NCBI RefSeq assembly: GCF_964194155.1
Contig: NC_135903.1
Span: 26,660,001-26,724,000, forward strand
Direction: 5' to 3'
Length of the DNA stretch: 64,000 bases
From: Cetorhinus maximus
Lineage: Eukaryota
Each line of letters opens with the position of its first letter. The stretch's first letter is position 1. Positions 18,245 through 51,274 of this stretch are shown one piece after another. The notes under the pieces were generated by a model. The model worked only from the letters and a program-made list of their open reading frames with translations, searched no databases and was not told the origin of the DNA. A program made the position numbers and the translations under genes.

Positions 18245-18718
18245 CTAAGGTCCAGCAGACAAGGGCCAGGATTCTTCCATCCTCCACACAGAAAATGCAT
18301 AGCTGAGTCTTTCGTGTGAAAGGTAATTGCAGCTTGTCACCTTACTATCCATCTCGTCGTTCTGCAGTACCTGGTAGAGGAAGTCGATGTACCTGGTGGC
18401 CAGTTTCAGGATCTGGATTTTACTGAGTTTATCTGAAGGCAGAGTGGGGATGATTTTCCGAAGAGTTGCAAAGGCATCATTCAGGGATTGTGTCCTCTGA
18501 CGCTCCCTCACGTTGGCCACGACTCGCTGCGTTTGAATGTCTTCCAAGCTCTGGGCAAGGGGAGAAATCTTCATCCCTTTCTTGCCGGTGCTGGGCCTTT
18601 GAGCCCTTTGGCCCGAGCGTCTCTTTCTGCCATTTCTCTTCTGCTGTGAGTCCTGCTCTTCCTCGCTGTTGCTTGAACTGTCCACGGGAGAAAACGGGGA
18701 ATTGGAATCCTCCTGCAT
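18245..18718 (-). CDS. twist3-like: Twist-family bHLH transcription factor, Twist3-type residues (157 aa from MQEDSNSP)
   Basis: N-terminal SPxSPVDS-S-NSEEE motif, basic NLS (KRNGRKRR), b[58 protein letters not shown], and Twist box [13 protein letters not shown]. Intronless CDS with donor CAG|GTAATT 17 nt after the stop (18228/18227). Family certain; paralog identity inferred. Confidence 0.97.
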
Positions 18719-18719
18719 G

Positions 18720-19100
18720 TTGCGTCCCACCAAACTTTTTTTTTAAGGGCTGTCGTCAGCAAGAGAGGCGACGGGGGGAAGAGAGAGAGAGAGAGAGAAA
18801 ACAAAGTCTCTGTGAACAGAAATTATGAATTTGTAAAAATAAACAAACTTACAAATGTGTCTTAGCAACTTTAGTCCCAGTGGTCCTAATTCTTCTTTCT
18901 GTCTTTCACTGTTTTCGTGGGGGGGTTTTAGCTTTCAAGATCCGAGAGAGGGCCCACATCCCGGGGAAGCTCAGAACTGATTGGGCCACATTCCCTCTAA
19001 TGAGTGGGAGTATTCTCTTGGCAAACGGTGCAGAAAACACCCACTAACATCTGTATAAAATCAGCCCGCGGATCAACTCCCATTTTTTTCCAAAGCGAAA
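18720..19100 (-). promoter_or_regulatory. Twist 5' UTR and proximal promoter
   Basis: (CT)n tract at 18779-18798 in the 5' leader, minus-strand CCAAT box (gattgg) near 18980, local CpG enrichment. TSS not determinable. Confidence 0.45.
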
Positions 19101-20056
19101 AGTTGATCTTAAAGGATATTTGGTGGAATCCAGACGGATACAAAACGTTTCATGTAACGAGATTTGCACATTAAACCTCTGCCAGGTGCTGGCCAAATCG
19201 GGAGGAAATGGCGATTTGGTAACAAAATAAAAGGAACGGTTGCTACATGGAATTTATAAATTCGGACTGTGAAGTATATTTCTAGTTACACTTTAATTGG
19301 CTGGTTGCAGTTTTTTTTTAAAAAAAAAAATTTGTTTTAAATGGTGTTAGGGAAATATTCTGGTGATGTCGCGTTGAAAACCGTCCACCAGTTATGAAGC
19401 GCTCTATTTATAATGTTCTCTTGACTCTATCAGTACGAGTTGTGTTCATGGCGTTAACGTGCATTATTCCTGAATGAATTTTGTACTTGATCAAAAGACG
19501 CTCCCAGGAAAGTTCTGGATTATTCTGCTGCAAAGTGTGAATTAATGCATCTCAATTCTTGTTCTTTGCTAAATCTGGGCAGCCTCAATGGAATATGTAA
19601 ATTAACACACATTCCGTGGTTTTCAGTCATATATTATTTTGGCCTACTCCAATTATTAAAGTCAGTTTAACTACAAAACTCTAATTCTGCTTGCAGTGCT
19701 GGAGATTTAGACTCCCATCATGTCTCTGTGCTGTTCCTCATTGTGCGTTTGTAACGCATTGGGGAATCGGCCCATGTTCGGAAGTCAGTGGAAGAGTTGG
19801 GGATTTGAGGCAAACCATCTTAAAATCCAACTTCAGGTTACTCCCCACAACCCCCTAACCAACAGCCTTCACCCCCACGTTGTTTTATTACAGGAATTCT
19901 TTGACAATTGCAAAGTGGACAGCAATGGTTTTTTTTGGAAGAAATTCTAGAGGAATTATGTGTTTTTAGTCACTGGACATAGTCTGGGGTGAGACAAGGG
20001 AAACTTGACCCAACACATTTTGTGATGTTTAACCATTAATCTTGTCTGTGTAGATC

Positions 20057-20076
20057 ACTGCGCCCCCTCGCGTCCA
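20057..20076 (-). promoter_or_regulatory. CTCF binding motif
   Basis: Minus strand reads TGGACGCGAGGGGGCGCAGT, a close match to the CTCF core CCGCGNGGNGGCAG/CCASYAGRKGGCRC, with CpGs retained. Confidence 0.65.
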
Positions 20077-20569
20077 TTCGGGGGATAGGCTACATCTGGC
20101 AACCGGAAGGTCGTGATCAGAAAGGTAAAGGTTTGTACTTTTATGTCACTTCTCAAAACCGCCTTTATAAAATCGCATAAGCAGCAAAAGGCCACTCAAT
20201 TTGTTTTTGGGTGATGCGGGTTGAGTAAAGGATGTTGGTCAGAACAGCCTGTTCTTCACCTAATGTAATTAGGATCTTTAATGATTACTCTAACCACTGG
20301 AATAGACAGATGGTATTGATTTAATGTATTATTACATTAAACCAACTACAGGGTAATTAAGGATGGGCAGCGGCAATGTCATCCACCTCCCAAGAACACA
20401 ATTTTTAAAAAGTTGGTTTCATACAAGCTGATGAAAAAAATTAACTGTTTCAAGTGAAGACTAACATTATTTTGTCCTATCAAGATAAAACTCAAGACTT
20501 GAGGTTGGCTGGTTGGACTAACAAGAGATTTGTTCAGCTTTATCCCATGGGAGTGCGGCATGGGCACAG

Positions 20570-23500
20570 AGTATGAAGTTGGGAGTTTAGTGAGTGAGGG
20601 AGTTCAGTGTAAAGGGGAAGGAGGTGCACCTTTCTGTTTTTACCTTTTTCAGTGTCCAGTAGCTGGTCAGTTTTCTTCCTTTGTCTCCAAGCAGGATTGG
20701 TCAATGTGAATCCACTGTGGAGGACTATGTGTAAGTAGCTATATAATAGAAAAATGTAAAAGTAACCCTTAACTACCTACAGGAGAACAGGAGTAGGAGC
20801 TGATTGGTGAGTGAGAGTCTGTAATTCTACATTCTACTAGCATCTAGTTTAAAAGTAAGGTTAATGTATGGCGGGGCAGCACAGGCTGAGTGGAATGTGC
20901 CTCCTGTGGTATGTGGGAAGTCACAGACACTTCAAGTGGCCTTGATAAACATGTCTGCAGGAAGTGACTCCAGCTGAAGAAACTTGAGCCCCAGGTTTTG
21001 GAACTCAAACAACAGCTGGAGTAACTCTGTCACTCATCAGATGTGACACATTTGCGAGGCTGAGGACTATGTGGATAATTCGCTTAGCGAGATGGTCACA
21101 CTGCAGGTTACAAGTGTGCGGGATGAAAGGGAATGGGTGACCACCAGAAAGTCGATTAGGACCAGGCAGGTTGTACACGAGTCCTCTGAGTCTATCTTGC
21201 TTATGAACCGGTTTTCCATTTTAGACCCTGGTGAGGGCAATGGTCCCTCATTGGTGTGTCGCAAGATCCAAGTTTGGTGCACCATGGGTGGCTCAGCTGC
21301 ACAGGTGGGAAGGAAGAAGAGTGGAAGAGAAATAGTGGTAGGGGATTCAATAGTTAGTGGAACAGACAGGCATTTCTGTTGCCATAGATGGTCTGTTGTC
21401 TCCCTGGTGCCAGGGTCAAGGATGTCACACAGTGGCTGCAGGAGATCCTTAAGGGGGAGGGTAAACAGGCAGAGGTTGTGGTTCACATTGGTACCAATGA
21501 CATAGGTAGAAATAGGGATGAGGTCCTGAAAGCAGGTTTTAGGGACCTAGGTAAGGCATTAAAAAGCAGGACATCAGAAGTAGTAATCTCTGGATTACTA
21601 CCAGTGCCTCATGCTGGTAAGCATAGTAAAAGGTTAGAGCTGATGAATGTGTGGTTGGAGAGATGTGCAGTAGGGAGGGCTTCAGATTCCTGGGGCATTG
21701 GGATTGGGTCTGGGGGAAGGCAGGACTTGTACAAATCGAATGGTTTGCAACTCAATAGAGCTGAGACCAATATCCTTTCCAGGAGGTTTGTTAGTGCTGT
21801 GTTTGCTAGTTTGGCAGGGTGATGGGAACCTGAGGGTAGACTCAGGTGGCACAAAATCAGAAATTGAAATGGAGTGTAAAAGGTTAGTGAATGAGTCTGG
21901 AAGGCAGAGGAAACAATGGATAGAAAATTCTAAAAAAAGAGTTTGGCAGTGCTCAAGGGTATATACTTCAATGTAAGGAGTATAGCAAGTGAAGCAGACA
22001 AGCTAAGGGCACAGATAGAAACATGACAATACGATACTATAGCCATTACAGAAACATGGCTTAAAGAGGAACAGGAATGGTAGCTCAATATTCCTGGTTA
22101 CAGGGTTTTCAGACGAGATAGAGAGCGGGATAAAGGAGGAGGAGGGGTGGCAATTTTGGTTAGAGAAATAATTATGGCTATGCGGAGGGTTGATATGTTA
22201 GAAGGATCATCATTTGAGGCCATATGGCTTGAGCCTAGGAACAAAAAAGGGCAGTCACACTATTGGGAGTGTACTATAGACCCCCAAACAATGAGAGGGA
22301 GGTAAAAGAGCAAATATGTTGGCAAATCTCTGAGAGGTGCAAAAGCAAAAGGGCAGTAAATGTAAGGGATTTTAACTACCCCAATATTAACTGGGATAGT
22401 TTTAATGTGAAAGGAATGGAGGGAACAGAATTCTTAAGGTGCATTCAGGAGAACTTTCTTGGCCTGTACATAGCAAGTCCAACAAGAGATGGCTTGGTTC
22501 TGGACTTAGTTTTAGTTAATGAAGCCGGGCAGGTGGAAGGAGTGGCAGTGGAGGAGCATTTTGGTGGTAGTGATCATAATTCAGTGAGTTAAAACATAAT
22601 TATGGAAAAGGACAAAGATAGAACTGGAGTTGAAGTTCTAAATTGGGATAAGTCCAATCTTACTAAGCTGAGAAGTGATTCAGCAAAAGTGGACTGGACA
22701 CAGCTACTTGAAGGTAAATCCGTGTCAGAGCAGTGGGAGGCATTCAAAGGTGAGATTCAAGGGGCTCAGAGTAAATATGTTTCCCCCCAAAAAAAGGTGG
22801 GATGGCCAAATCTAGAGCCCGCTGGATGTCAAGGAGCTTACAGGATATGATGAGGCTGAAAAGGAAAGCTTATGTCAGACACTGAGAACTCAATACTACA
22901 GAAAGCCAACAGGAATATAGAAAAAAGAGGGGTGAAATCAAAAAGGATATTAGGAAAGCAAAGAGAGAGCATGAAGGAAATATTGGCAAGCAAAATCAAG
23001 GTGAACCCAAAGATGTTTATCAATACATTAAGAGTAAGAGGATAACTAACAAAAGAGTAGGGCCCATAAAAGATCAAAAAGGTAACCTATGTTAGAGGTG
23101 GAAGATGTGGGTATGGTTCTTAATGAATATTTAGTGTCTGTCTTCACAAGAGGGGGACAATGCAGACATTGTAGTTAAGGAAGGGGAGTGTGAAATATTG
23201 GATGTGATAAACATAGGGAGAAGGGAAGTATTAATGGGATTAGCATCTTTGAAAATGCATAAATCATCAGGGCTGGATAAAATGTACCCCAGTCTGTTAA
23301 AGAAGCCAAGGAGGAAATTGCAGAGGGCCGGTCAGATTCACCTCAGAAGTAGGCAAATTATTGGAACCAATTCTGAGAGACAGGATAAACTGTCACTTAG
23401 AAAGGCATGTATTTGTTAAAGGAAGGTCGTGTCTGACTAACTTGATTACATTGTTTGAGGAAGTAACAAGGAGGACTGATGAGGTTAGTGGAGTTGATGT

Positions 23501-24685
23501 CGTTTACATGGATTTTAGCAAGGCTTTTGACAAGGTCCCACATGGCAGACTGGTTAAACAAAAGCCCATGGGATCCAGGGGAATGTAGCAAGCTGGATAC
23601 AAAATTGGCTCAGTGACAGGAAACAAAGGGTAATTGTTGATGGATGTTTTTGCGACTGGAAGGCTGTTTCTAGTGGGGTTCTGTAGGGCTCAGTACTGAG
23701 TCCCCTGCTATTTTGTAGTATAGATTAACAATTTGGACATAAATGTAGGGGGAATAATCAAGAAATTTGCAGATGACATAAAAATTGGTCATGTAGTTGA
23801 TTGTGAGGATAGCTGTAGCCTGCAGGAAGATATCAATGGACTGGTCAGGTAGGCAGAAAAGGGCAAATGGAATTCAACCCAGAGAAGTGTGAGATGACGC
23901 GTTTGGGGAGGTCAAACAAGTTAAAGGAAAACACAATAAATGGGAGAATACTGGGAGGTGTAGAGGAAGTGAGGGACCTTGGAATGAATGTCCACAGATC
24001 CCTGAAGGTAGCAAAACAAGTTGATAAGGTGGTTAAGAAGGCATATGGAATCCTTGCCTTTATTAGCCGAGACATGGAATATAAGAGCAGGGAGGTTATG
24101 CTGGAACTATATAAAACATTAGTGTGGCTACGATTTGAGTACTGTGTGCAGTTCTGGTCACCTCATTACAGAAAGGATGTAATTGCATTAAAGAGGGTAC
24201 AGAGGAGATTTATGAGCATATTACTGGAAAATTGCAACTATGAGGAAAGATTGGATAGGCTGGGGTTGTTTTCTTTGGAACAGAGGACGCTGAGGGGAGA
24301 TTTGATTGAGATGTACAAAATTGTGAGGGAGCCTGGACAGAGTGGATGGGAAAGGCCTATTTACCTTAGCAGAGAGGTTAATGACTAGGGAGCATAGATT
24401 TAAAGTGATTGGTAGAAGGATTAGAGGGGAGATGAGGAAAATCTTTTTCACCCAGAGGGTGGTAGGGGTCTGGAACCCACTGCCTGAAAGGGTGGTAGAG
24501 GCAGAAAACTTCATCTCATTTAAAAGGTGCCTGGATGTGAACCTGAAGTGCCATAACCTGCAAGACTACAGACCAAATGGTGGAAAGTGGGATTAGGCTG
24601 AGTGGCTCGTTTCTTCAGCCAGCACAGACACGATGGGCCAAGTGGCAACCTTCTGTGCTGTAAACTTTCTATCATTGTAATGTTT
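20570..24685 (+). mobile_element. Near full-length degenerate CR1 LINE (5' UTR, ORF1 zinc-finger plus SGNH esterase, ORF2 APE plus RT)
   Basis: ORF1 has CASCGMWE, VVGDSI and VVHIGTND. ORF2 has endonuclease GVYYRPP and SDHN, RT VVYMDFSKAFDKVPH and FADD, and C-terminal EYCVQFWSP and FFTQRVVGVWNPLPE. Many stops and frameshifts. Confidence 0.95.
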
Positions 24686-24819
24686 TGCTTGAAATGTTGT
24701 TTCCACAGAAATGTATGTATTGTTGACTCTCCCTCCAGAAGCCTTGTAAGGAAGAACTACACACCTTTTACTGATTTAGTTTAGGTTATCCTTTAAAATT
24801 TATTCCCCAAACAACATCA

Positions 24820-25000
24820 CTAAAACAGATTATCCTCATTACATCACTGGATGTGGGGCCTTGCTGTGTGCAAATTGGTTGCTGCATTTCCTGCATTACA
24901 ACAGTAACTAAAATTCAGAAGTACTTCATTGCCTTGTAAAGCATTTTGGGACATCTGGAGGTCACGAATGGCATTATATAAAGGCAAGTCTTACTTTTTA
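24820..25000 (+). mobile_element. DeuSINE-like 3' fragment
   Basis: ttgctgtgtgcaaattggttgctgc...tatataaaggcaagtc; matches the tail of the 37400-37740 copy. Confidence 0.55.
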
Positions 25001-25139
25001 TTTGAAGGATAGGCTTCCCCATGACTACACTGGTATGTTAGCCATGTTTATGTCTTCAAGTCCTGATTATGGATTCCAATCCTACTCCTTCTGACCCATA
25101 AATGAAAGGACAGATTGTCCCTTCCGTTCTGAAATGTAA

Positions 25140-26190
25140 ACCAAGGTCATTTCAAAAGGCATCGACAAAGTGCCACATAGTAGTCTCATGACCAAGGTCA
25201 GAGAACGTGGAGTCACAAGACATGTAGTGGAATGGATAGGAAGCTGATTACAAACAGAAAACAGGGGTTAAATGTAGCTATTCAGCCTGGCAAAAGGTGA
25301 TAAGCGGTGCTTTCAAGTGATTGGTGTTGGGACCACTGATGTTCACAATTTACATAAATGATTTGGCTTGTACAATTTCAAGATTTGCAGATGACATCAA
25401 ATTGGGGTGGGTATAGTTAATACTAAGGAAAAATGTGGCAAAATACAAGAAGACATTAATGAACTTGTAGAATGGTGTGCAAGCAGAAAATTCATTTTAA
25501 TACATATGTTTATAATGGTGCATTTTGGTAGGAAGAGTAAGGAAGCCATATATTGTTTAGATAATAAGGGTCTAAATGGGGTAGAGGAGCAGAGGGATCT
25601 AGGGGTACAGGTGTACAAATCACTAGAAGTAGTGAGACTGGTCAATAAAGCTATTTTTTAAAAAAAGGCAAACCAAGCAATGGGGTATATTTCTGGAGAG
25701 CTTCTCTGTTATCCAACTCTATGTTGAACTTGTATCAAACTTTGGTTAGACCTCATGGAGTACTGTGCTCATTTCTGATCTGCATATTATAGAAAGGATA
25801 CAAAGGCACTGGAAAAAGGTGCAAAAAAGACTCTTAAAGATGATACCAGAACTGAGAGGATATGCTCATCAGGAAAGGCTGAACAAGCTGGACCAGTTTT
25901 CTCTAGAACAGACAAGTTTGAAGGTTGATCAGATGGAGGTTTTTAAAATTATGGAAGATGTAGAGAAAATGTTTCCACTTGCAAAGTCCAGAACTAGATG
26001 TCATAAATAGAAAACAGTCAGCAATAAATCCAATAGGAATTTCAGGAGAAACATCATTACCCAAATTTTGGTTAGAATATGGAACTTGCTACCACAAGTA
26101 GTTGAGGCAAATAGCAAAGATGCATTAGCTAGACAGAGGGAGAAAGAAATGGAAGGAAACACTGATAAGATTGGCTGGAGAGGTTGGAAA
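25140..26190 (+). mobile_element. Degenerate CR1 ORF2 3' fragment
   Basis: DKVPH, FADD and EEQRDLGVQV remnants homologous to the CR1 at 23500-24600. Confidence 0.85.
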
Positions 26191-26679
26191 AGTCAATAAA
26201 ACCATTAGCCAATGAAAAGAAAATTACAGGCACTAGAGGCATTTTATTATATAGATTCCACCTTTCTGGGTTAATGATATTTTCTCATTTAAGTTTGCTA
26301 ATGGAGTTCAGGTTACATTAGTGTTAGTAACGTTTTCAGCATCAATAACCACCTCTTTTATAATGGCATATTTTTCAATGTGATCATGTGAGCACAGCAT
26401 CGCAACAAGGAGGAGGCTAAGATTGTGGTGTTGGAAAATAAAATTCATATGCTTCTCATGAGTTTTTAAAAACTTTTATATTATAGTTTTATGTAAACTT
26501 TTATATTATAGTTTTATGTAACATGTATAAGGTATGCAATTCTAGTCATATGAATTGATCATAGGGGGCTATTGTTGCTACATGTCATGTTGCCCCTTTG
26601 CTAGCAATCAAATATTTAAAAATGGTATAAAATTGTATCCACAGTCTTTCTACAATCTAAATAACCCTGGAGGGGTTTC

Positions 26680-26935
26680 ACAGATGGAACACCACCACCT
26701 GGAAGTTCCCCTCCAAGTCACTCACCATCCTGACTTGGAAATACATCGCTGTTCCTTCAGTGGCACTGGGTCAAAATCCTGGAACTCCCTTCCTAACAGC
26801 ACTGTGGATTTACCTACACCACATGGACTGCAGCGACTCAAGAAGGCAGCTCACCACCACCTTCTCAAGGGCAACTAGTGATGGGCAATAAATGCTGGCC
26901 CAGCCAGCAAAGCCCATCCTGTGAATAAATGATAA
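26680..26935 (+). mobile_element. LINE 3' end (family of 58117-59575)
   Basis: Near-identical to 59330-59560 (SKSWNSLPNSTV, AAHHHLLKG, gatgggcaataaatgctggcc). Confidence 0.85.
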
Positions 26936-29480
26936 AAGGAACAGATGTAGTACATCTACAGGTTCATATATTGATTTTAAAAATGACTAAAGCTGTTGTA
27001 AGGATTTGCCTCATATGAAGTCCTCAAGGTGTTACTGCCTTATAACTCATTCCAACCTATGTGTTATCTACTAACCTCCACTTGTTCTCATTTTCTGGTG
27101 GTCAACCATGATTACAAAATAACTTAATACTGTAATGTGGATATCATATTTCAGCCGCCTGGACTACAGTGGCCAACACTGTCCACCATCTCATCTGTTC
27201 TAGTTTCACAATGTTCTTTTCATCTACCATGGAATCAAACCTCAGCAAGAGACCCCAGCAAGAAAAGGAGATAGCTGGTTTAAAAAAAAAAACTTTTTGT
27301 TTACTTAGCGAAATGCTACAGAACACTTTATGACAATACTAAAAGGATTAAAAATAGCTATCTGGCAATTTTTAATGGTTGTCAGAATTCTGAATTACAT
27401 TTAATCTTTGGCAATGTAGATCTATTTTTGCACCACATCAGCACAAAATGTTCAGTGCAACAATATCACGTGACAGGACCTATACTGCTACCAATTTACC
27501 TTCTGTAGATTGTAGCAAAATTCACTTATAGAGTATATAGTGAATACAACTGTGCTGAAGATTAATACACGAATGAATAATAATTAATAATGAATCCATT
27601 TCAAAGTCAAACACTGGAGATGTTCATTAAGTCCTTGTCATTAAACACTGTCAAGTATTACACTTATGCTGTGATCCCTCTGCACCTCTGTTCTATACTT
27701 TGATTCATATCTGACCTGTTGTCAGCATTTTACTTGTAATAATGGCATGTTGAATGTTCCACTGTAAAGCTGTTCAGATTTACTAACTCAACAAGTCGAA
27801 TGTGTTCCTTGCAGGAAGGGTGAATTCCTTTGGTTGCAATGAAATGAGTGTGCATCATATTAGAATCAAAACAACTATTTCCTTCCCAATTTTTAAAATT
27901 TTCTTTAACACAGAGGCAAAGATCTAAATTCTTGCAATTTATTTTTTGAATATACAATTAGAGTAAATGACAGACTTTATGGAATAGAACAACAGTGAAA
28001 TGACATTAAGGAGTCAAGGGACAGTGGCTGGAATAAATAAGACATATTGCTGACGAGGTAAAACTTTAACTTAAATTTTTGTTCCCTTACACCTGTCAAA
28101 TGTAGCCAGTGTAAGCCTGAGAGTGCATGTTCAGCTTTACTTCAGTACTAGCACAAAAGGTACTGTAATAGGAACTGGAGTACGCCATTCATCCCCTCGA
28201 GCCCAATCTGTCATTGTTAGATCATGTCTGATCTGTAACTCAAATCCAGCTGCCTGGCTGCATAACCCTTAATACCCTACGCTTAACAAATGTGAAGATA
28301 TAAACATGATCTACCTGACTGGTATAAAGTGACAAAGTAAAAAAAAAAACTGCTGTTATGTATGATTTTATTGACTATTATCACTTTTATTTTAGGTGTA
28401 AACTTTCAATTGCCTCCTTGCTAACCAGATTAAGCTGGCAATGGAAACAACAACTTGGATTTAACAGTATCCTTAGTGTATTAAAAGATTCCAAGGTGTT
28501 TCACTGAAGAAAAATTGACTGAGTAGTAGAGGGGCTGGGAGGGATCACCAGGTTCACAATGAAAAGGTCGGTGTTTTTGGGATGATGGAGGGTTTCAGGA
28601 GGAGAATCAACATTGGTTCTGCACCTGTCCAGTGTTGAGGCTTCAGCACACTGGCAGTGATACCCCATAAGTACCTTCATAGGAAAGTTCCTAGGCAGGT
28701 GACCCTTTCATTCTCCATATCGAGCTCAGGAACTCAGGGCGAGATTTTCCACACCCACTCGCTGCAAGTCAATGGGCGCCGCCTTGCCCACGGCAAGTCC
28801 CACCCGCGATGGGGCCAGAAAATCCCGGCCTCAGTCTTGAACTGTGGGCACAAACCTGCCATTTTGCACAGTATTTTAGGACATCAACTGATTATATTTG
28901 TCAATCACAGCCACTCTGTTAAAGACCTGTGCCCGCATGGCTGCAACAAAACAAATGATTCAAAAACAAATTACACTTTATACACAGCAAAGTAACAGAT
29001 AAAAGTGTGACCACAACGAAAAGAAGCTACAGTGTGTAGAGTAATCATGACTCAAGCAACTACTGTACCAGGATAGTGCAAGGCGGGAACTGGGCCTTTT
29101 ATTGTCCAGAAATCCCAATGTTCCTATAGCAGAGTTTACAGAGCAGGTTTGTCCCTGGGTGTACTCACTTTATATGAGGCCTAGGAAGTAATTTTGATAC
29201 ATTGTAAAGGAGGCAAAATATCTTTATTTTGAAGGATTAAATGGAGATCTAGAGCTAATCGGTAAACAGCTGGCACTTTGTAATGTCCTTGCATATGGCT
29301 CTGAACAGGAAGCATCATTACAGTTACCACCTGATTTCAAATCAGTTTGACCACTATTGATTCAGGCTATTGATTAAACTGCGGAAGGTAGGAGGTATCA
29401 ACTATAACAGTATGTTGTATTTTGAAATATGTAGCAGGATAAGGTGAAACTCTTTTTAAATAGGTGTACCATCATTGGTG

Positions 29481-29844
29481 CTACTGTTGTTTCTGTGACT
29501 GCTGAATTACAAAAATGGAATGCACTGTCCAAGGGATAATAGCAATAACCAGAACAGGAACAAATGCATTCTTCAAGTAAAACAGAACATAAAACAGAAC
29601 ACTCGAGTGTTTCGACAGTGGTATTTTATCCATGATCTCAATGATGAGGACGGAGAGCACTATGCACAAAATTTTCAGCTTCCCTGTCATTTTCCATCGC
29701 TGTGTGCTGGCATACATTGGTGAGGCGAGCCCAAGACCAAGTCCTAGCAGTGCCCCTGTATCCCTGCTAAGTGAAGAAAACGGTGCCGTATCCAGTCGAA
29801 TCCATTCAGGCTTGGCACACCACTTTGTAGCAAGGTGAATCGTC
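29481..29844 (-). CDS. G6PC3: G6PC3 exon 6 (364 nt, includes stop)
   Basis: Acceptor tgttccag, phase 2. Translates (W)TIHLATKWCAKPEWIRLDTAPFSSLSRDTGALLGLGLGLASPMY...VPVLVIAIIPWTVHSIFVIQQSQKQQ*, matching the G6Pase KWC..PEW...PF.SL motif. Minus-strand AATAAA at 29223-29228. Confidence 0.95.
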
Positions 29845-32950: not shown

Positions 32951-32989
32951 GCAGATATCACTCTCACTTCTGCCCCCACCACCGAACTT

Positions 32990-36199: not shown

Positions 36200-36397
36200 A
36201 TGGGGTAGGAGTTGAGCACAGGAACCCTGATCCATTTATTCCTCTCGAAAGTGTATATTTCCCCCTTTCTAATCTGTGCTCATCCCTAGGTGTTTGTCTT
36301 AAACACATTGTTTATCTTTGTTATAAAAGATTCCAGACCTCACCTATCACAGGTGATCGCTGCCAGAAAGGGAAAGTGTGGAAATTGCAAGACTTAC

Positions 36398-36539
36398 CAG
36401 GAGACATTGACACCGATATAATTCAATCCCCAATATAAGCACACAGCACTTAGCAGCAATCCGATCGAAGTAGTAACATAATGGATGAGTTTGATATTCT
36501 CTGGTTCATATCTGCCCAGCAGAAAGCCAAGCAGAGCAC
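36398..36539 (-). CDS. G6PC3: G6PC3 exon 5 (142 nt)
   Basis: Acceptor tttcag, donor gtaag. Translates (G)ALLGFLLGRYEPENIKLIHYVTTSIGLLLSAVCLYWGLNYIGVNVS(W). Phases fit the flanking exons. Too short for the ORF track. Confidence 0.92.
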
Positions 36540-39636: not shown

Positions 39637-39755
39637 CTGTAATTATTCCATCAAGTACTTGATGGGGAAAATGAGCCAAAATAAATATTCTGGAGATGCC
39701 GATTGCCAGCAGCATCACGATGTACAATACTACAGGGATGGTCTTTGCCAGTGAG
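39637..39755 (-). CDS. G6PC3: G6PC3 exon 4 (119 nt), PAP2 motif 3
   Basis: Acceptor ttttaag, donor gtaag. Translates (S)[39 protein letters not shown](G), containing SRxxxxxH with the phospho-acceptor His. Confidence 0.95.
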
Positions 39756-39788
39756 CTTAAAATACATGAAATATCTGATGTTAGTAAT

Positions 39789-41371: not shown

Positions 41372-42121
41372 GTAATAACATATTATAACCGTTAAAATTT
41401 ACAATGTTTATTTGGCAAGTTTTGTGAAGTTTTGGGGAATGGGAAACTCTCACTTATGGCATCTATCAAGCCTCCCAAGATTGATTACAGTTTTGGGAGA
41501 TGCAGAGCAAAAATCCAGCTACTGTTCCCAAAACTATGGCTTAACCCAATCACTGTCTATTCTAAGCAGTATCGATTTACAGCTACTAACAGGTGACACC
41601 TGCCAAAAGTATGCAAGTTTTGATGTTGGGTGAGGGCAGAATCAGCTTGCTTAATATGTCTTCTGTGATCAGATAGCCTGCCAATGCTCAGGTTTACACA
41701 ATAAGAATGCACAATAGAGTGAGACAATGGAGAGCAACTGATGCCCATGGAACCATTTCCAGATGAGAATTAGCTCCTTCAGAAGCGGAAGAGAGAATTG
41801 CCAGTGAGAGAGAGGGAATGTTAATAGGATCCAAGCAGGTTGATAAAGCAGAAACCAAGACACAGAGCTTTTCTTCATTAGGAGAATTTATTGACTTGGT
41901 GCAATCTCAACAGTTATTCTCCCACACACCCAATGTGCCAGCTTTTTCCTATTTATATGTGCTCAAAGTATTTAATCAAACAATGCCCTTCACCTGTGTA
42001 TCCTACCAATATACTTAATATACCATTAAAAGGAAGTACACATATATTTATGCAACTAGTGTTTAAATGGTGAATAATTAATTGATCATCTTGATATTTT
42101 ATCAGTTCAAGCAACACAAAC

Positions 42122-42212
42122 CTTCTGGTGCGATTGTAAATGAATGCGGAAAGGTTGGTCATCATAACCCACCAGGCTGCACCGGTGATCATGGCATGAC
42201 CTGAAGGACTGC
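42122..42212 (-). CDS. G6PC3: G6PC3 exon 3 (91 nt), PAP2 motif 2
   Basis: Acceptor actttag, donor gtttg. Translates (G)SPSGHAMITGAAWWVMMTNLSAFIYNRTR(S) with catalytic PSGH. Confidence 0.95.
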
Positions 42213-42304
42213 CTAAAGTAACAGAAACACAGCAGGAAAATCAACACTTTATCACCAAATCACAAAGCAAAGTTTAACAGTAAGAGTAATATAAGGGACA
42301 AACA

Positions 42305-42435
42305 CACGGGTCATTTGGACTCGAAATGTCAACTCTGTTTCTCTCTCCACAGATGCTGTCAGACCTGCTGAGTTTTTCCAGCATTTTCTATGTTTGTTTC
42401 AGATTTCCAGCATCTGCAGTATTTTGTTTTTATAC
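42305..42435 (+). mobile_element. Penelope-like terminal repeat fragment
   Basis: gggtcatttggactcgaaatgtcaactctg...cagatgctgtcagacctgctgagtttttccagc...gatttccagcatctgcag. Confidence 0.7.
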
Positions 42436-42999
42436 TAATCTGAGCTGAATCTGAGCTGTCCCCATGGTGTGGTGGGTAGGTGCACACTATGGTAACTAAG
42501 TCCTACACACCAGGGAAGTTCACAGCATCTCAGTCTTAATCATTAAAATATTTATGTATGTGAGAGTATACTATGAATCATGATTGTGGAGATTTGACCA
42601 TATTCCCCCTGTGATAAACGGCTCACCACTTTTGACAAATGATGAAAAGCAAAAATAAATCTATTGAAAGAACTGGGAGGAATTATAGGGAAAGTTGTGA
42701 TCAGTCTGTTCTGGGATTATTTGTACATCAGCAGTAGAGCCCTGACTGAAATTCAACTTGTACTCCACACATTCCTGCACTTTTTCTTCTCGTCAATGGG
42801 TAACCTACATTATTTCACAATAATTAACTTCAGATTCAATTCCATACATTTGCAGTGACTGTATGACAGATGGAATCCTTCAGTGAGGGTTTCCTCACTA
42901 ATTAACTGAATGGAACTGCCTGGCCAATGTCAGTGCAGATGGATGGGGCACATCAGTAATGCAACAACAGCAGGTCAGATAATGCTGAATGATGAATAA

Positions 43000-43640
43000 C
43001 ACCAACTTGTATTTATAATGTACTGAAACATCCCAAGGCGCATCATGGGAATGTCATCAAATTAAGATTTAACACCGAGTCACATAAGGTATGAGGATAA
43101 ATGATCAAAAGCTGAGTCAAACAGGTAGGTTTTAAGGAGCATCTTAAAGGAGGAAAAAGAGGTAAATAGACAAAGAAGTTTAGGAAGAAAATTCCAGAGC
43201 TTAGGCCCTTGAAAGCCAAAGGCATGGATGCCAATGGTGGAGTGATTAAAATCGGGGATGCTCAAGAGATCAGAATTGGAGGAGTGCAGAGATTTCAAAG
43301 GCTTTTGGACTGGAAGCTAATTAGATGGAGGCAAGGCCATGGAGGGATTTGAAAACAAGACTGAGAATTTTAAAATTGAGGCATTGCCGGACTGGGAGCC
43401 AATGTAGATCAGTGAGCACAGGGATAATGGTTGAACAAAACTTGGTGTGAGTTAGAGACAAGTAACAGAGTTTTGGATGAGCTCAAGTTTATGTAGGGTG
43501 GAAGACTGGAGGCTGACCAGGAGAGCATTGGAATAGTCTGGTCTAGAAGAAACAAAGGCTTGGACGAGCGTTTCAGCGGCAAATGAGCTGAGGCGGGCAG
43601 ATTTGGGTTATGTTAGTGAGGTGGAAGTAAGCGGTTTGGA
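43000..43640 (-). mobile_element. L2 LINE 3' fragment
   Basis: Minus translation AFGFQGPKLWNFLPK...SSFKMLLKTYLF, plus the reverse complement of the L2 tail. Confidence 0.75.
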
Positions 43641-44269
43641 CTAGGTAAGCAGTGGTTGGTATAGCTGGACAGGGAAGTTTCATGTTATCACCCCTCAGCC
43701 AGAATGTCATCAAGGCCATGATGTTGGTGCAAACATCCACAGTAAACTCATGGATGGCACAGGTGAGCAGAAAGCTGGTTTGCTGGCAGAATCCAGCGGA
43801 TCAGCACCAGAAGTGGTGAGCTCAACAGGAAGGAGGTTGGCAATATTAGTCCCCAATGGGTGCACTGGGCAGTAGGGTCACGAGAGCAGGATGGGGCAGT
43901 TCAGGTTGCTGCTTGTACGGAGGTAGTGATGAGTGCCTCAATGGGCCCGTGGAGGATGCCAAGTGTGGCATGAGAGGGAAGTATAGGCTTATGTCACGGG
44001 GCGTCAAGCCTAGGATGCTGGTAGGAGTGCAGGAAGGTCGAGGAGTGCTGAAGGGCTGGAGTGGGATTTAAGAGGGCAAAGTCCCCAGGAGGAGAGAAGT
44101 GAAAGGAGGCATGACAACTGGAGAGAGGGACGTAGGAGGGTTAAGGAGAAAGAAGAAAAGGAAGGGAAGAGAAAAGAGGAAAGAGGCTCAGATCCAAAGT
44201 GATAGCCAATAATTGCATGCAATTGGACACGTGGAAACTCAAGTTACGTAGGCGTGGAAGTTAAGGATC

Positions 44270-45528
44270 TGTACTACTTGGTAATAAATGGGGCATAGGG
44301 ACTCAGACACAGATGTGCGGGGGGGCGGGGAGAAAGTGAGTCCGAAGGCTAATTAAAGGGTGAAGCACTAGACGAAGCAATGTTGGAGCTATTTGCATGA
44401 AGAGCCAATGAAACCAAAGTTGCCGAATGACCCCTGATTATTCATATAGCACCAGATTAAAGAACCTAACAGCACCTTTGTGAATAAGTGAATTCCTTGA
44501 CGGAGTCAGTGAGTCTGGAGGGTGGGTGGTTAACTCCATTAGAGATATAAATTAGTCATTTGGATCTCAGAATCAAAGGTTTGGTTTTGAAGCTAAGAGC
44601 TCATTAATGTAAATTTCTGTTTGGGGCATCCCAGGTATGCTACATTGCCATGGAGATAGGTTGCAGGGAACTTCCCTTTAATGGGGGTTTAATCTGTGTG
44701 TTTTGCTCATAGAGGCAAGCAGTTCAGCTTGGAGAAACCAGAAGATTTCGGACTTGGTGCTGGAAGCAACCGTGTTCACCCCGAATTCAGAAGGCAAAGG
44801 GAAATAATTTGCTAAGGGCTGTGGAACAGGAGGATAGTGCAATTAAAAACCAGGGGTGTTTCTAATTTTCTGTTTAAGTCACTGCGCGGGAATCGCGCGT
44901 GAAGTTCAGGCATGAACTAAAAATTCCCAAACCCTACAAGGCAGCTGTGGAAACGTTTGGAGTTGGTCCCAAGAAAGTGGATAACCTTCGAGAACCCGTA
45001 GCCAAACAGGTAACCAAAGACTTTCTGGGGGGAGTCGTAGGGGAAAAGTGAAGTGAGGGTTCAGTTGAGGATTTTGGTCTAGAGTCTACATGGTTTCATT
45101 TTACTGTGCTTTCCGATGTAAAGTATAAGTAATCACCTAAGACAATGTTGACTTCGTAGTCAAAAACAAAAACAGAATTACCTGGAAAAACTCAGCAGGT
45201 CTGGCAGCATCGGCGGAGAAGAAAAGAGTTGACGTTTCGAGTCCTCATGACCCTTCAACAGAGGACTCGAAACGTCAACTCTTTTCTTCTCCGCCGATGC
45301 TGCCAGACCTGCTGAGTTTTTCCAGGTAATTCTGTTTTTGTTTTGGATTTCCAGCATCCGCAGTTTTTTGTTTTTATTTTTGACTTCGTAGTGTTTATTT
45401 GCTTGATTCTTCTATAGCAAAATTCATTTGTTTTAAACTGTGGAATCTTGTGGCTTCATTCTTTCAGTAAGTAACAAGAATTTCAAATTTCTCTTTAAAT
45501 ACTAGCAGTCTCTACAAGGATCTTAACA
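44270..45528 (+). mobile_element. Probable solo LTR hosting the Penelope palindrome
   Basis: Starts TGTAC, ends TTAACA, near-TSD GGATC/GGATT. The 3' part resembles LTR U5 sequence. Left boundary uncertain. Confidence 0.4.
45161..45379. mobile_element. Penelope-like insertion forming an inverted terminal repeat (84-bp perfect arms)
   Basis: Arms 45163-45246 and 45261-45344 with a 14-nt spacer. Flanking 13-bp direct repeat TTGACTTCGTAGT at 45148-45160 and 45380-45392. Confidence 0.85.
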
Positions 45529-47287
45529 GGATTTGGTCCTCAAGTCACCTTCAACGGTAGTTCCACTCCATCCGAGTACTCTGGAGACAGCTGTCACCCA
45601 AACTGTACACTCCTGCAGAACCCCTTTAGCTAGATCCATGACTGTCTTCGTGGCACAGTTTTCCCAGAGAGTCCTTTATCTGACTCCTTTAATAAACTTT
45701 GTTGAATCCTCTGTTTGACTCTGGAAAAACTGTAGCTGTAAAATTTCCAATTCACAATCTCTGCTCTAATCCTGTCTTCCGTTTTTGTCCTTTTTAAACT
45801 GTATTACACGCGCAGATGCTTATAAATGTATCTTCTCTGTTCTTCCCATGCTGCAGCTTTTCTTTGTTCTTTACGCCGACCCCAGAAGCAGATCATAGGT
45901 GGCTGCAGAAGCGGGTGAGAGCCAGGACGGGCTGATTAGAAAGCCCACCTCTGTTCTCTGGGACTTCGTCCCAGTTGTTTTAGAAGCTGTTAAACCCTAT
46001 AGCTCTCATTCTTCACACCACCCCTCCCACTCCCCATGCCCACTCCCCACCAACCTCTCATGATCCTCACACACCCCCAGATCCCCTCATACTCCTATTT
46101 CATCTCCTTAGCTACTCACCCAGGATCCACTATGGACAGGCCTTAGAAACCACGTGAAGATGAAAGAAAATAAACTTCTAACAATCTAAGAGTCCCCGCT
46201 CATACATACTTGATACTGAAAAATACTCTCATGAAAGCCATTTGGTAATTTTAAATCCCCTCAAATGTTCAATCTATTATAAAAACAAAAAAACTTCTGT
46301 TCAGTAACCACATCAAAGACAGCTAATCCTTTAATAGCCTCTTTAAACTGTTGATTGTAATGTGAACTCAGACCCCCCCCTGTTGATGTGCTTGTGTAGC
46401 TTTTGAAACTCAGCCAAGCATTCATAATGACCTCAGCTGTAAATAACAACCCTTGGGAAATATCAACAATTAACTCCATTGAAATTGCAGGAGCAGGTGG
46501 TAATATTTTTTTCTATCCTACATCAGATGGCCTGGCAGTCAAAGTAGTCCAGCAAATAGTGCTTTTTTTAACTCTGCCAGCTTCAGCCTGTTCTTTGTCA
46601 TTTTTAAAAGGCTGAGGATTTAAATAACTTCAGATCATGACACTTAAACAAATCTTATCCACCCTTAAAGAGAGTTTACGTCTATTCCATAAATTCATGA
46701 CTCCCACAATGCAGGTTAAGGCCCTTGGAACACAAAAATGGGGTCTGATTGAACTCAGCTCTGATTTCAAATGGCCCTGCTGAGTTTTGGTTTCCCACTT
46801 GTGTGACTCAAGCCCTGACCCCTTCCCCTGCCTGCAAAAATGGGATCTGTCGAAATTGGGGTGGGACTTCTGCATCTGGGTCCTGCCTACCATTTTTAAA
46901 GGTCTCTGGAGTCAGCCTGGCTCCGCTAAAATCCGGCTCATAGTGTCCAACTGAATAGTAATTCACTGGAAATGAATTGTAGAATCAAACCTCTTATACA
47001 TAACCAACTGTGTAAGAGAATGGCTGATTTTCAATTTTCAATTGCTAATTATCAATAAAAATGCGACTTGAAATTGGCAGATTCAAGTCTGTTCAGATTT
47101 GTTAAGGTTAATGAAATATATTTAAAACAGGCCTTTAATAGGAGAGAGGTGTATTGAAAAAAATTGAAGGAAAGAAAATAAAATTTCGAAATTTAGATGT
47201 CAATTTAAGTGATCAATTTGACAGAAAATACAGACAAAAACAGCCCGTCCGTGTATAGAATTCACATAGCACTCAATTTGAACAAAC

Positions 47288-47397
47288 CTGGACCAGTTTC
47301 ACAGGAGGAATAAAACTGCTTTAACTTGGGCATCTGCTGCTCGCCATAGACCCCCGATTCATGAATCCACCAAAACGGACGCTCGCCAAACAGCAAC
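47288..47397 (-). CDS. G6PC3: G6PC3 exon 2 (110 nt), end of PAP2 motif 1
   Basis: Acceptor ttctaatag, donor gtttg. Translates (W)[36 protein letters not shown](G), completing KxxxxxxRP and containing CETGPG. Confidence 0.95.
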
Positions 47398-47656
47398 CTA
47401 TTAGAAACGTAAGAGATAGTCAGATTTGATCTGAAAAAGTGTGATTTCTGACAGATCTTTCTGGTCAGCCAGATGTTCTTACAGTGTTCAAAGCAAGCTA
47501 CTAAAACATATGCATATTCTGTTTGCCTGATACAATGGGATGGAGCTTCTACTTTGAGCGCAAACAATGATTCTAGCACAATTTGGTCCTGTTGTGAAAT
47601 GTGTTTCCTTAACACCCAGCACCCCCGAATATTCAGTTCAAACTTGTCTGTATAAT

Positions 47657-48035
47657 GGGGAGGCGATGGTGTTGTGGTATTGTTGCTGGACTCGTAATCC
47701 AGAGACCCAGGGTACTGCTCTGGGGAACTGGGCTCAAATCCCGCCATGGTAGATGGTGGAATTTGAATTCAATAAAAATCTGTAATTAAAAGTCTAATGA
47801 TGACTATGGAAAGATTGTTGTAAAAACCCATCTTGTTCCCAACTGCCACTCAGTTGTATCAAACTGTTACAAAGCAACTCCCTTCCTAACAACATGGTGA
47901 GTGCATCAATACCACATGGACTGCAGTGGTTCAAGAAGGCAGCTCACCACCACCTTCTCAAGGGCAACTAGGGGTGGGCAATAAATGCTGGCCCAGCCAG
48001 CAAAGTGTACATTGTGTGAATGAGTAAAAAAAAGG
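47657..48035 (+). mobile_element. SINE 5' part joined to a LINE 3' end
   Basis: SINE head like 38680, followed by the aactcccttcctaac...caccttctcaagggcaactagg tail and an A-rich end. Confidence 0.65.
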
Positions 48036-48199
48036 CAGATGCAAAATTTGATGTGATGGAGCGCAATGGAGCAGTTTTTTAAAGTATAACTTTTCTATCA
48101 TTTGTTTTAAAAATATTTCTTGATATATTTTATGAGTTGTAACTTGGGAAAGTTTGATTAATTCAGCTGGAAATTAGCATTACTCCAGCATTATACCCT

Positions 48200-48630
48200 T
48201 GACTCCAAATGTTAAATTAGGAGAGATTATATAAACTAGGAGCACAGTTCCTGGAATTTAGATGGTTAAGGGGTAATTTGATCAAAGTTTTTAAGATATT
48301 AAGGGGAATAGACATTGAAACTATTTCTGCTGGTTGGGAAGTCTAGGACTAGGGGAGAGCATTGCCTAAAAATTAGAGCCAGACTTTTCAGAAATGAAAT
48401 TAGGAAACATTTCTACTCGTAAAGGGTGATAGAAGTCTGGAACTGTCTTCTGCAAATGGCAATTGATGCTCAATCAATTGCTAGTTGTAAATCTGAGATT
48501 GGTTAACAAAAATCTATCCAAGGTATTAAGGGATATATGGCAAAGTTAGTTATAAAGATTTAGATTGCAGATCAGCAAGATTTCATTGAATGGCAGAACA
48601 GGCTCAGGGGCTGAATAGCCTGTTCCTATA
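48200..48630 (+). mobile_element. CR1 3' fragment
   Basis: gaaattaggaaacatttctactcgtaaagggtgatagaagtctggaac; 3' UTR gaatggcagaacaggctcaggggctgaatagcct. Confidence 0.7.
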
Positions 48631-49329
48631 AGTTTCCAAACACATGCCAGCAGGATTTACTCGATAGCAATCATCAAAAGGAATTTTTGCCATTATTCTG
48701 TTGTTTCCTAATCCAGCATTGTTGAGACCAACTATTAGCCCCCACACTGCTATTCTGGTTGAGATCAGCCACCACGTCACACACCAGCAATCGAACTTGG
48801 GAGTTGCCTGGCCCATACTGCTTAGCTCTCCACTGTACTGCTGTTATCCTTATGAGAATGTTTGGAACTCTAAGTAAGATGTGAAATGTAAAGGAACTGT
48901 CCACTGGGAAGGATTTTTTTTTAGCTCCATTAATCAATCATCAATGTTAAACTGAAACCTAAGTGAGAAACCATCCCATGTAATTCTGCAGGTTTATTTT
49001 TAAGCAATGTAGTGTTCCATAAATGAGAATTGAAAAATTGAAATATCATTAAGACCTGAATACCTGGAATTATAGGTTGCCAACCCAAGGATTGCCTTGG
49101 AGTCTCTGCGAATTGTAGATTTAACCTTCAGGTCAAACCTCAGGGGCATTATGAAAAATCTTTCAACGCCATTGTTTATATGATATAAAAATGCTGTTGA
49201 TTGGAAAGAAAGGTCTGTCTGACAGTTAAAAATCATCCAGTCGGGTAATGAAGAGCCAAAGCTTGCTTTCCAATTTTCATGGGAAGGGCAGCATGGGCAT
49301 GTTGGACAACCAATGGAGGTTTGTGTTTT

Positions 49330-49910
49330 ATTCATTCATGGGATGTGGGCTTCACTGGCTGGGCCAGCATTTATTGCCTATCCCTAGTTGCCCTTGAGAA
49401 GGTGGTGGTGAGCTGCCTCCTTGAACCGCTGCAGTCCATGTGGTTTAAGAATACCCACAGTGCTGTTATGAGGAAGGGAGTTCCAGGGTTTTGACCCAGC
49501 AACAGTGAGGGAACGGTGATATATTTCCAAAGCAGGATGGTGAGTGACCTGGAGGGGAACTTTCAGTTGGTGGTATTCCCACCTAATCTGCTGCTCTTGT
49601 CCTTCTAGATGGTAGTGATCGTGGGTTTGGAAGGTGCTGTCAAAGGCGCCTTGGTGAATTCCTGCAGTGCACCTTGCAGGTGGTACACACTGCTGCTACT
49701 GTGCGTCGGTGGTGGAGGGAGTGAATTTTTGTGGATATGGTGCCAATCCAGTGGGCTGCTTTGTCCTGGATGATGTCAAGCTTCTTGGAGCTACACTCAT
49801 CCAGGCAAGTGGGGAGTATTCCATCACACTCCTGACTTGTGCTTTGTAGATGGTGGTTTGGGGAGTCAGAGGGTAAGTTACTCATTGCAGGATTCCCAGC
49901 CTCTGACCTT
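49330..49910 (-). mobile_element. LINE 3' fragment (family of 58117-59575)
   Basis: Reverse complement of 59000-59560 (KKLDIIQDKAA, LHHRRTVAAVC). Confidence 0.85.
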
Positions 49911-50259
49911 GGTAACATTGGGTTAGGGCAATAAGAGGGAGAAGGAAGTCATGTGATGAAACCTCCAGGAAGACAACCAGCCAGAGTTGGTAACCCTACA
50001 GTGGGATGACACCTTGCACACTGAAAATTATAATCGCAGACGACAGGTTGGTTTTTGGCTTTAAATTTAGCAATCAGAAGAACACTGAACGATTCTAATC
50101 TGTTATGTTCCTTTCCCCTTACTTGGCCCTGCAGCATAACATCCAAAAAAAAATGTTTTAAAATCCCATATATATATATACATATTTTGGTCATTGTGCA
50201 TGTCTTTATAATAGTGTCTTTCATCACGAAGTATGACAAGGCTTTGCATAGTTTGAAAT

Positions 50260-50520
50260 AAAGCGTCTCCCGGCAGCCATTTTGCGAAGTTCCAAAAATA
50301 AAACCAGCCATGAGGCGGTGAGTGATCAATCCGCCGGCTGGGGGGAGGAATATTACCTCAGACATCGGAACTCTCTGATCATCTGACACGGCGAAGGCGT
50401 CTTTAACACCCACAGCGGAGCGGCGGAGCGAGTGGCCAAGGCAGCGACTGAACATCTCGATACAAAGTTGCAGCGAGTTCTGTCAGTAACTTGCCGCTGG
50501 TTCCGGGTCCGCATTAGGTA
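50260..50520. promoter_or_regulatory. CpG-rich promoter-like segment in G6PC3 intron 1
   Basis: YY1-type GCAGCCATTTTG at 50273-50284, ETS-type TTCCGG near 50501, dense CpG, splice-donor-like sites on both strands. Confidence 0.5.
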
Positions 50521-50729
50521 AAATGATGGGGCAAATAGGTTACAGCACCAAATATTTGCATGTTATCTATAAAAAAAAGCCACTTCTGATGATGTGGGGA
50601 GTGGGAGGGGGAGGATTTGGGAGGGGGGGACGAGGGCAAAAGGGGGGTGTCTTGTCAGCTTGAGAAGAAGAGGGAAAGATGTCGATGGGAAACAAACTGG
50701 GTCAAGGAGGGAGAGGAACAGGAACTTAC

Positions 50730-50947
50730 CATTTACAGGTTAAGTTTAACCACTCGGCAAGGATGGTAATCCACAAAACCGAAATCCCGATCTTCCTGCT
50801 GAGGAAGAAGGTGACGGGGAAATAAATGAAAAAGGAGGATCTGGGGTCGCCGACGCAGCTCATCCACAGCAGGAACCTCTCGCAGCCGCCCAGCCCTTGC
50901 TGCAAACTCTCAGCCGCCCGCACGCCCTGGATGTAAAGCGGCTCCAT
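50730..50947 (-). CDS. G6PC3: G6PC3 exon 1 (218 nt from the second ATG; in-frame ATG also at 50950)
   Basis: Translates MEPLYIQGVRAAESLQQGLGGCERFLLWMSCVGDPRSSFFIYFPVTFFLSRKIGISVLWITILAEWLNLTCK(W), donor gtaag. GDP..F..YFP and EWLNL..KW are G6Pase hallmarks. The six-exon layout (218/110/91/119/142/364) matches G6PC3 rather than the five-exon G6PC1/2. Confidence 0.95.
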
Positions 50948-51274
50948 CATCTACCCGAGTGGCAACGATGTGGATTCAAGCTGGGGGAACCAGTGTAATC
51001 CCAGGCAGAGAATGAGAGGCTGCTGGCGCCTTCCTGCTTCACTCCGCAACCATAGGCCGGGCTCTCAATGACTCAAAAACACTTCTTGGCTCACTTTTTT
51101 TTCTTCTTAATCGGTGTCCGACAGCAAACCAACGAGGACAAACCTCGTCCTTCCACAAAAGCGCTGACAGTCAAAGCATGAACCTGAGCCGCTTGAAGTT
51201 TCAACCCATTGACGCTGAAGTCGCTGTTGTCACCGATTCCCACAGACTCTACTCATTGCGGTCTTTCTAACATA

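Follow-up and report, generated by a model that had tools for sequence, protein, structure and literature searches.

Which of the vertebrate Twist genes lies next to HDAC5 in the basking shark? Twist genes, which encode E-box-binding basic helix-loop-helix (bHLH) regulators of mesenchyme, have key roles in the development of neural crest, mesoderm, and skeleton. In this study, we analyzed a window of 64,000 nucleotides from Cetorhinus maximus (contig NC_135903.1, here called C26, positions 26,660,001 to 26,724,000), whose initial annotation had proposed that a Twist gene in it fills the HDAC5-linked slot expected from the two whole-genome duplication rounds (2R). The gene is intact, strongly conserved, and located in that predicted slot. 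It is probably the fourth 2R duplicate (ohnolog) of Twist, a copy from the HoxB-bearing chromosome segment beta1 that cartilaginous fishes retained and that bony vertebrates likely lost. Under this model, an ancestral tail-to-tail pair of HDAC and Twist would have been copied onto four chromosomes, yielding HDAC9-Twist1 (with HoxA), HDAC4-Twist2 (with HoxD), HDAC7-Twist3 (with HoxC), and HDAC5 with the gene described here (with HoxB). Bony vertebrates would then have kept Twist3, and cartilaginous fishes would have kept the HDAC5-linked copy and likely lost HDAC7 along with Twist3. We infer both the origin at 2R and the reciprocal loss.

Three ancestral vertebrate Twist paralogs are described in the part of the literature represented by PMC4996418. 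If our model is correct, the jawed-vertebrate ancestor had four, the gene counted as "third Twist" in sharks is not the one so counted in bony vertebrates, and the equal counts of three mask paralogy and mislead comparisons of expression between sharks and bony fishes. The gene is also a testable candidate for chondrichthyan-specific patterning of mesenchyme. Its sequence is already in databases; what is likely new is its reading as the beta1 Twist of a known family. We found no report of it as a fourth Twist in the literature covered, with most subscription papers and two key papers on Twist evolution lying beyond that coverage.

A Twist gene between HDAC5 and G6PC3

The Twist coding sequence is a single exon on the minus strand (positions 18245 to 18718 of the window) that runs without a stop from ATG to TAG and encodes 157 amino acids. 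A Twist-type bHLH domain is present, as indicated by a Pfam HLH match at residues 64 to 114 (E 2e-18) and by a gapless alignment of 67 residues to human TWIST1, the closest match in PDB (8OSB, E 2.6e-31). The N-terminus has an SNSEEE motif and a basic stretch, and the C-terminus has a Twist box with its WR motif and a conserved core of 12 residues. The three residues that follow WRM read EES in 16 of the 452 proteins that could be scored, each of them from the chondrichthyan clade, and EGA in 400; this altered tail after the WR motif is invariant within the clade and may affect partner binding. Because the basic region is conserved, binding to E-boxes and dimerization with an E protein are expected, and the predicted role of the protein is that of an ordinary Twist factor acting with an E protein on E-boxes in mesenchyme.

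The order of genes on C26 is HDAC5 (plus strand), Twist (minus), G6PC3 (minus), and LSM12 (plus). The initial annotation had placed the Twist open reading frame (ORF) about 10.8 kb downstream of a same-strand G6PC3, with no other recognizable gene between the two, and had predicted a plus-strand HDAC5 to the left of the window, and each of these statements is borne out. The upstream gene has six coding exons, and 10.76 kb separate its stop (29481) from the Twist ATG (18718). The gap holds three ORFs of at least 100 amino acids, one of which has a weak Pfam match (OSK/GDSL-like, below the cutoff), and these appear to be transposon remains. To the left, white-shark HDAC5 aligns as 23 collinear plus-strand tblastn segments, the first at C26:26,501,763; the final coding exon reaches to about C26:26,644,170, which leaves roughly 34 kb to the stop of Twist, and the two genes converge. 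One HDAC exon beside the window is 100% identical to HDAC5 records of lamniform sharks. White-shark HDAC5 shares 69 to 75% identity with six bony HDAC5 proteins in the N-terminal part and 88 to 91% in the catalytic domain, compared with 55 to 62% and 75 to 81%, respectively, for four HDAC9 proteins; in a comparison with PDB chains, human HDAC4 reaches 770 bits and human HDAC7 reaches 666 bits. By these pairwise sequence comparisons, with HDAC7 and HDAC4 represented by PDB chains, the gene to the left of Twist is HDAC5. The initial annotation had held that an HDAC7, HDAC4, or HDAC9 neighbor, or none at all, would speak against its proposal.

To the right, beyond the window, four plus-strand exons (C26:26,738,005 to 26,773,031) encode an LSM12-like tail (Pfam PF09793), which was located with the tail of a fused sturgeon model as the probe. 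That sturgeon HDAC5 model with an LSM12-like tail is likely a fused annotation, and the fusion implies that HDAC5 and LSM12 lie close together on the same strand in sturgeon too. We take the human order to be LSM12-G6PC3-HDAC5, with no Twist gene. In frog, lsm12 and hdac5 have a single gene model number between them in the relevant table of PMC10972751, and that model would be g6pc3. C26 also carries a Hox9 gene, presumably HoxB9. A blastn comparison of 20-kb flanks with the Twist1 and Twist2 loci revealed no shared noncoding elements, only coding or repeat-like matches.

Paralogs and distribution of the gene

Genome searches found three Twist loci, on contigs C3, C11, and C26. The window protein as the query (all 71 candidates scored) and turtle Twist3 (all 72) gave this same count, and by turtle Twist3 the window locus ranks third of the three. 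Three probes for class IIa HDACs likewise gave three loci, all on these contigs and each a plus-strand gene that converges tail to tail on a minus-strand Twist. These are HDAC9, HDAC4, and HDAC5, and the HDAC9 and HDAC4 slots are occupied by the Twist1 gene of C3 and the Twist2 gene of C11, not by the window gene, in agreement with the linkages of TWIST1 to HDAC9 and TWIST2 to HDAC4 on which the initial annotation had built. The Hox9 activation domain has three matches, one on each of these contigs, and no fourth Hox9 was found in the genome. The three class IIa probes found no HDAC7 in this assembly of 5087 contigs, and HDAC7 was not found in five chondrichthyan genome sets according to the relevant part of PMC6539745. 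SLC48A1 has a single match, located on a contig of 2.8 kb (C4637) that has 62% GC and is rich in CT repeats. The HoxC-linked chromosome of this genome may be lost, eroded, or unassembled.

The published tables that we consulted place the Twist3 of bony vertebrates elsewhere. In the hagfish genome study (PMC10972751), hdac7, twist3, and slc48a1 are listed at 13.53, 13.59, and 13.61 Mb on gar LG4, at 140.97, 141.06, and 141.13 Mb on frog XTR2, and at 0.384, 0.426, and 0.444 Mb on chicken chromosome 33; the frog gene is labeled twist2 there (row 22670) and classed as beta2. Positions by hdac7 in zebrafish (PMC3426487) and chicken (PMC4592986) agree in the portions of those papers that we used. 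The same tables of PMC10972751 class hdac5 and lsm12 as beta1, place hdac5 on chromosomes other than that of twist3 in gar and frog, and pair twist1 with HDAC9 (gar, chicken, and frog) and twist2 with HDAC4 (gar and chicken), and Supplementary Table 9 assigns twist1 to alpha1, twist2 to alpha2, and twist3 to beta2 and leaves beta1 empty. The window gene is not in the HDAC7-SLC48A1 position, as its neighbors are HDAC5, G6PC3, and LSM12 and SLC48A1 is on another contig; it has the slot and orientation of a beta1 copy, flanked by two beta1 genes and on the same contig as a Hox9. One lamprey Twist is separated from LSM12 by 6 kb, and both lamprey and hagfish have HDAC-Twist pairs (PMC10972751, same tables), from which it follows that the slot predates jawed vertebrates.

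The proposal of a fourth paralog in cartilaginous fishes thus stands as far as the HDAC5-linked slot is concerned, but three Twists, not four, were found in this genome. The initial annotation had further reasoned that three Twist loci, together with a bony twist3 beside hdac5 and g6pc3, would make this an ordinary Twist3. The count found is indeed three; bony twist3, however, is beside HDAC7, on the HoxC paralogon to which the annotation had assigned it in teleosts, and the combination makes reciprocal loss likely. Like the window gene, the bony Twist3 of gar, bichir, teleosts, amphibians, turtles, and birds lies on a beta segment and has a class IIa HDAC as its neighbor, but it occupies the HDAC7-SLC48A1 (beta2) slot and keeps the canonical Twist-box tail. 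TWIST1 (HDAC9 linked, alpha1) has the SNSEEE motif in common with the window gene and differs in its separate locus on C3, its protein identity of 68%, and its bHLH residues and tail. TWIST2 (HDAC4 linked, alpha2) is similar to the window gene in length and tail-to-tail layout, has its own locus on C11, and is the source of the label "twist-related protein 2-like". Naming has hidden other 2R ohnologs lost in some lineages: nanos1A/1B in sharks (PMC5932020) and CHST16 (PMC7353957) appear to be cryptic ohnologs with differential loss. Unlike in those cases, the loss of Twist genes looks reciprocal, leaving three in both lineages. The frog "twist2" that adjoins hdac7 groups with Twist3 in our tree, and many bird and turtle records named "TWST2" or "twist 2-like" are also Twist3.

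Relatives that are 96 to 99% identical to the window protein come from 14 other chondrichthyans (sharks, rays, and one chimaera), and a fifteenth model has a broken C-terminus; beyond these chondrichthyan relatives, identity falls to about 70%. Motifs specific to the clade are present in 16 to 17 of 465 Twist-like proteins, namely, 16 named chondrichthyan proteins and one identical to the window protein. Contigs of the same length carry Twist and HDAC5 records in all six named chondrichthyans that have both (Narcine, Chiloscyllium punctatum, Scyliorhinus torazame, Mustelus, Rhincodon, and Mobula birostris) and carry Twist3 and HDAC5 in none of nine bony species (gar, Microcaecilia, Pleurodeles, four turtles, Chinook salmon, and conger); because assembly versions may differ and the teleosts have extra duplicates, we use this comparison as supporting evidence only. 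Leucoraja and Hypanus have Twist and HDAC5 accession numbers that differ by two, and in the GenBank set of the bamboo shark the two numbers are consecutive.

Databases label the gene "twist-related protein 2-like", much as the initial annotation had guessed, a catshark copy is in GenBank (ABY76997.1), and UniRef files a catshark copy under Twist-related protein 1. The bamboo-shark model chiPu_0013898, which is without a Twist box, is numbered between LSM12 (13896) and HDAC5 (13899), both classed as beta1 in PMC10972751; the model itself was not found in the part of that study's family table available to us, which gives two bamboo-shark Twists. In the skate annotation, as far as PMC10115646 was accessible, G6pc3 is near Hdac5, and the model named G6pc3 (LE24982) has both HLH and PAP2 domains, so it is likely a fusion of G6pc3 with the chondrichthyan Twist. 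The same data give LE24982 a log2 expression shift of -2.3 between anterior and posterior pectoral fin, in the same direction as the -4.8 and -2.8 of the two named Twists; the values may belong to the Twist part, an assignment that the fusion makes ambiguous. That the bamboo-shark and skate models are broken or fused helps explain why the gene was overlooked.

Origin of the HDAC5-linked Twist

Orthology is not settled by sequence alone, and synteny carries the case. Maximum-likelihood trees, proposed in the initial annotation, were built from 42 and 26 rows picked by hand from more than 400 Twist-like proteins. In the 42-row tree of whole proteins, the window gene and its relatives form a clade of their own (support 100/100) on a long stem (0.64), outside the chondrichthyan Twist1 and Twist2 clades. 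Since the cyclostome rows that root this tree, from lamprey and hagfish, do not qualify as real outgroups (the lamprey gene being copy 2 of the first duplication round), the tests were repeated unrooted on 26 gnathostome rows in four groups. Grouping of the whole protein with Twist1, which the pairing of HoxA with HoxB segments makes the expected 2R sister of a beta1 copy (PMC10972751, in part), is compatible with the data in the approximately unbiased (AU) test (P = 0.32 with 42 rows and 0.40 with four groups). Grouping with Twist2 was rejected with 42 rows (P = 0.0115; P = 0.06 in the four-group test).

The two halves of the protein, divided at the start of the bHLH domain after the alignment had been seen, give different answers. 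The N-terminal 58 columns group the gene with Twist1 (93/77), and the four-group test gives P = 0.87 for this pairing. Mean N-terminal identity is 53% to Twist1, 51% to Twist2, and 32% to Twist3. The asparagine of S-N-SEEE, a mark of Twist1 according to the section of PMC4996418 consulted, is present in the window gene and in 9 of 9 Twist1, 0 of 9 Twist2, and 0 of 15 Twist3 proteins. The N-terminal coding DNA aligns to the Twist1 gene of the same genome (71% over 112 bases) and has no match to its Twist2 gene, which differs in GC content. The window protein was also the best of the three shark Twists for none of 10 bony Twist3 queries.

Several observations weigh against the gene being a beta1 ohnolog. 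The whole-protein tree joins it to Twist3, although weakly (84/71). The C-terminal 102 columns (bHLH and Twist box) group with Twist3 more firmly (97/95), and for this half the Twist1 pairing is rejected in the four-group test (P = 0.034; P = 0.086 with 42 rows). The gene has three derived residues in common with Twist3, one of them with ray-finned Twist3 only, and mean identity over the bHLH and Twist box is 81.5% to Twist3 and 78.5% to Twist1 and Twist2. The best-hit test loses force because of the long stem branch. No single genome among those covered combines all four Twists. This assembly has the HoxC-linked region in fragments, as the short SLC48A1 contig indicates, and for that reason the loss of HDAC7-Twist3 in cartilaginous fishes is no more than likely. 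Finally, the neighborhood of the chimaera gene, like those of seven other species, lies outside the Twist-HDAC5 contig comparison.

The affinity of the bHLH half for Twist3, which the initial annotation had not foreseen, keeps alive accounts that invoke relocation or gene conversion. In the former, the window gene would be the orthologue of bony Twist3, moved from the HDAC7 slot to an empty HDAC5 slot on the chondrichthyan stem (or in the reverse direction in bony vertebrates), and jawed vertebrates would only ever have retained three Twists. Such a history would account for the grouping of the bHLH half, for the Twist3 identity of the nearest nonchondrichthyan relatives of residues 58 to 150 (85 to 90%, leaving aside a top-scoring rodent model with a duplicated C-terminus), for the failure of the two types to occur together in any lineage among the 465 proteins, and for a branching of chondrichthyan and osteichthyan genes that matches the species tree. 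However, the move would have had to hit the exact paralogous position in the right orientation, with HDAC5 and G6PC3-LSM12 intact on either side, in a slot marked as ancestral by the lamprey Twist-LSM12 and HDAC-Twist links. The N-terminal identities, the compatibility of the whole protein with Twist1, and a retained splice donor site after the stop codon argue against it as well. Reciprocal loss costs two losses, and relocation costs one loss plus a move into the exact paralogous position. We regard relocation as improbable.

A tentative alternative, which is compatible with a beta1 origin, is that the bHLH part of a beta1 ohnolog was overwritten by or homogenized with Twist3 through exchange between the beta chromosomes, leaving a mosaic. 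The conflict between the halves is what an exchange would produce, HoxB and HoxC are both on beta segments, and prolonged homeologous exchange has been suggested for Hox-bearing chromosomes in the pertinent part of PMC7269912. Nevertheless, the C-terminal signal is carried by the three derived residues, of which the aspartate of the first helix is seen again in 36 of the 122 representatives that could be scored (mostly unnamed and distant) and another is missing from 8 of 15 Twist3 proteins; the branches of both genes are long, the place of the split is post hoc, and the N-terminal half is compatible with Twist3 (P = 0.40 with 42 rows and 0.14 with four groups). Either convergence on two fast beta branches or beta-chromosome exchange would explain the mosaic. 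The most elaborate version, in which the gene completes the quartet and is also a fossil of HoxB-HoxC exchange, with a Twist1-like N-terminus and a Twist3-like bHLH domain that are nearly unchanged in sharks, rays, and chimaeras, active in fin mesenchyme, and mislabeled or fused in annotations, seems unlikely to hold in full. It is far less plausible that Twist1 or Twist2 was duplicated in chondrichthyans only and that the new copy happened to insert next to HDAC5, an idea that draws on the confinement of the gene to chondrichthyans and on its Twist1-like N-terminus but that conflicts with its position outside both chondrichthyan clades, with the result for Twist2, and with a location that is precisely that predicted by whole-genome duplication.

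Transcripts and neighboring genes

The Twist stop codon is followed, as read from the sequence alone, by 17 bases of 3' untranslated region (UTR) and a GT splice donor (18222 to 18244, minus strand). The other two Twist genes of the genome also have a GT donor-like site 10 to 20 bases past the stop, and because the site is common to all three, the window Twist is likely not a retrocopy. Contigs from sequencing runs suggest a second, 3' UTR exon at 15607 to 17184 (minus strand), with a candidate splice acceptor at 17185 to 17186 judged by eye and an AATAAA at 15629 to 15634 close to the contig ends of two runs. Four of 21 runs were mapped, all presumed to be RNA and none recorded as such. The likely 3' UTR is partly covered by contigs in all four, the coding region is covered by contigs of one run from a relative, and no contig among the four runs joins across the 3' UTR intron.

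Run contigs and splice signals also point to a likely divergent spliced transcript on the plus strand (19102 to 20200, right end approximate), with an exon to 19218, a GT..AG intron at 19219 to 20053, and a next exon from 20054, where loose contig ends in two of the four mapped runs begin to match the window. This transcript starts head to head with Twist and was seen in one run each from two related organisms, sequenced in separate studies; it is a candidate conserved divergent noncoding RNA.

The G6Pase-family gene (50950 to 29481, minus strand) has six coding exons whose GT-AG edges yield an open frame of 346 to 352 amino acids, three inner edges being ambiguous by a few bases. Exon 1, with the start (50730 to 50950), and exon 6, with the stop (29481 to 29844), match human G6PC1 structures (E 6e-12 and E 4e-20, respectively); exons 2 and 5 lie at 47288 to 47397 and 36398 to 36539, respectively; and exons 3 (42122 to 42212, weakly) and 4 (39637 to 39755) match PAP2. 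Six exons are, we assume, typical of G6PC3. We provisionally call the gene G6PC3 because of its family match, its six exons, its separation from a five-copy cluster, and the skate annotation. Broken transposon-like frames lie at 21092 to 24388 (with the weak GDSL/OSK-like match) and 57565 to 61339, and reverse-transcriptase fragments lie at 58071 to 58870. ESM Atlas look-ups gave no name for the G6PC or Hox9 paralog. A genome search found no G6Pase-family match on C11, where G6PC2 might presumably be expected. The other five copies of the family, 39 to 45% identical and 5.2 Mb away, appear as five exon matches within 65 kb (C26:31,877,204 to 31,942,520; three on the minus and two on the plus strand), likely a tandem expansion of G6PC1-type genes.

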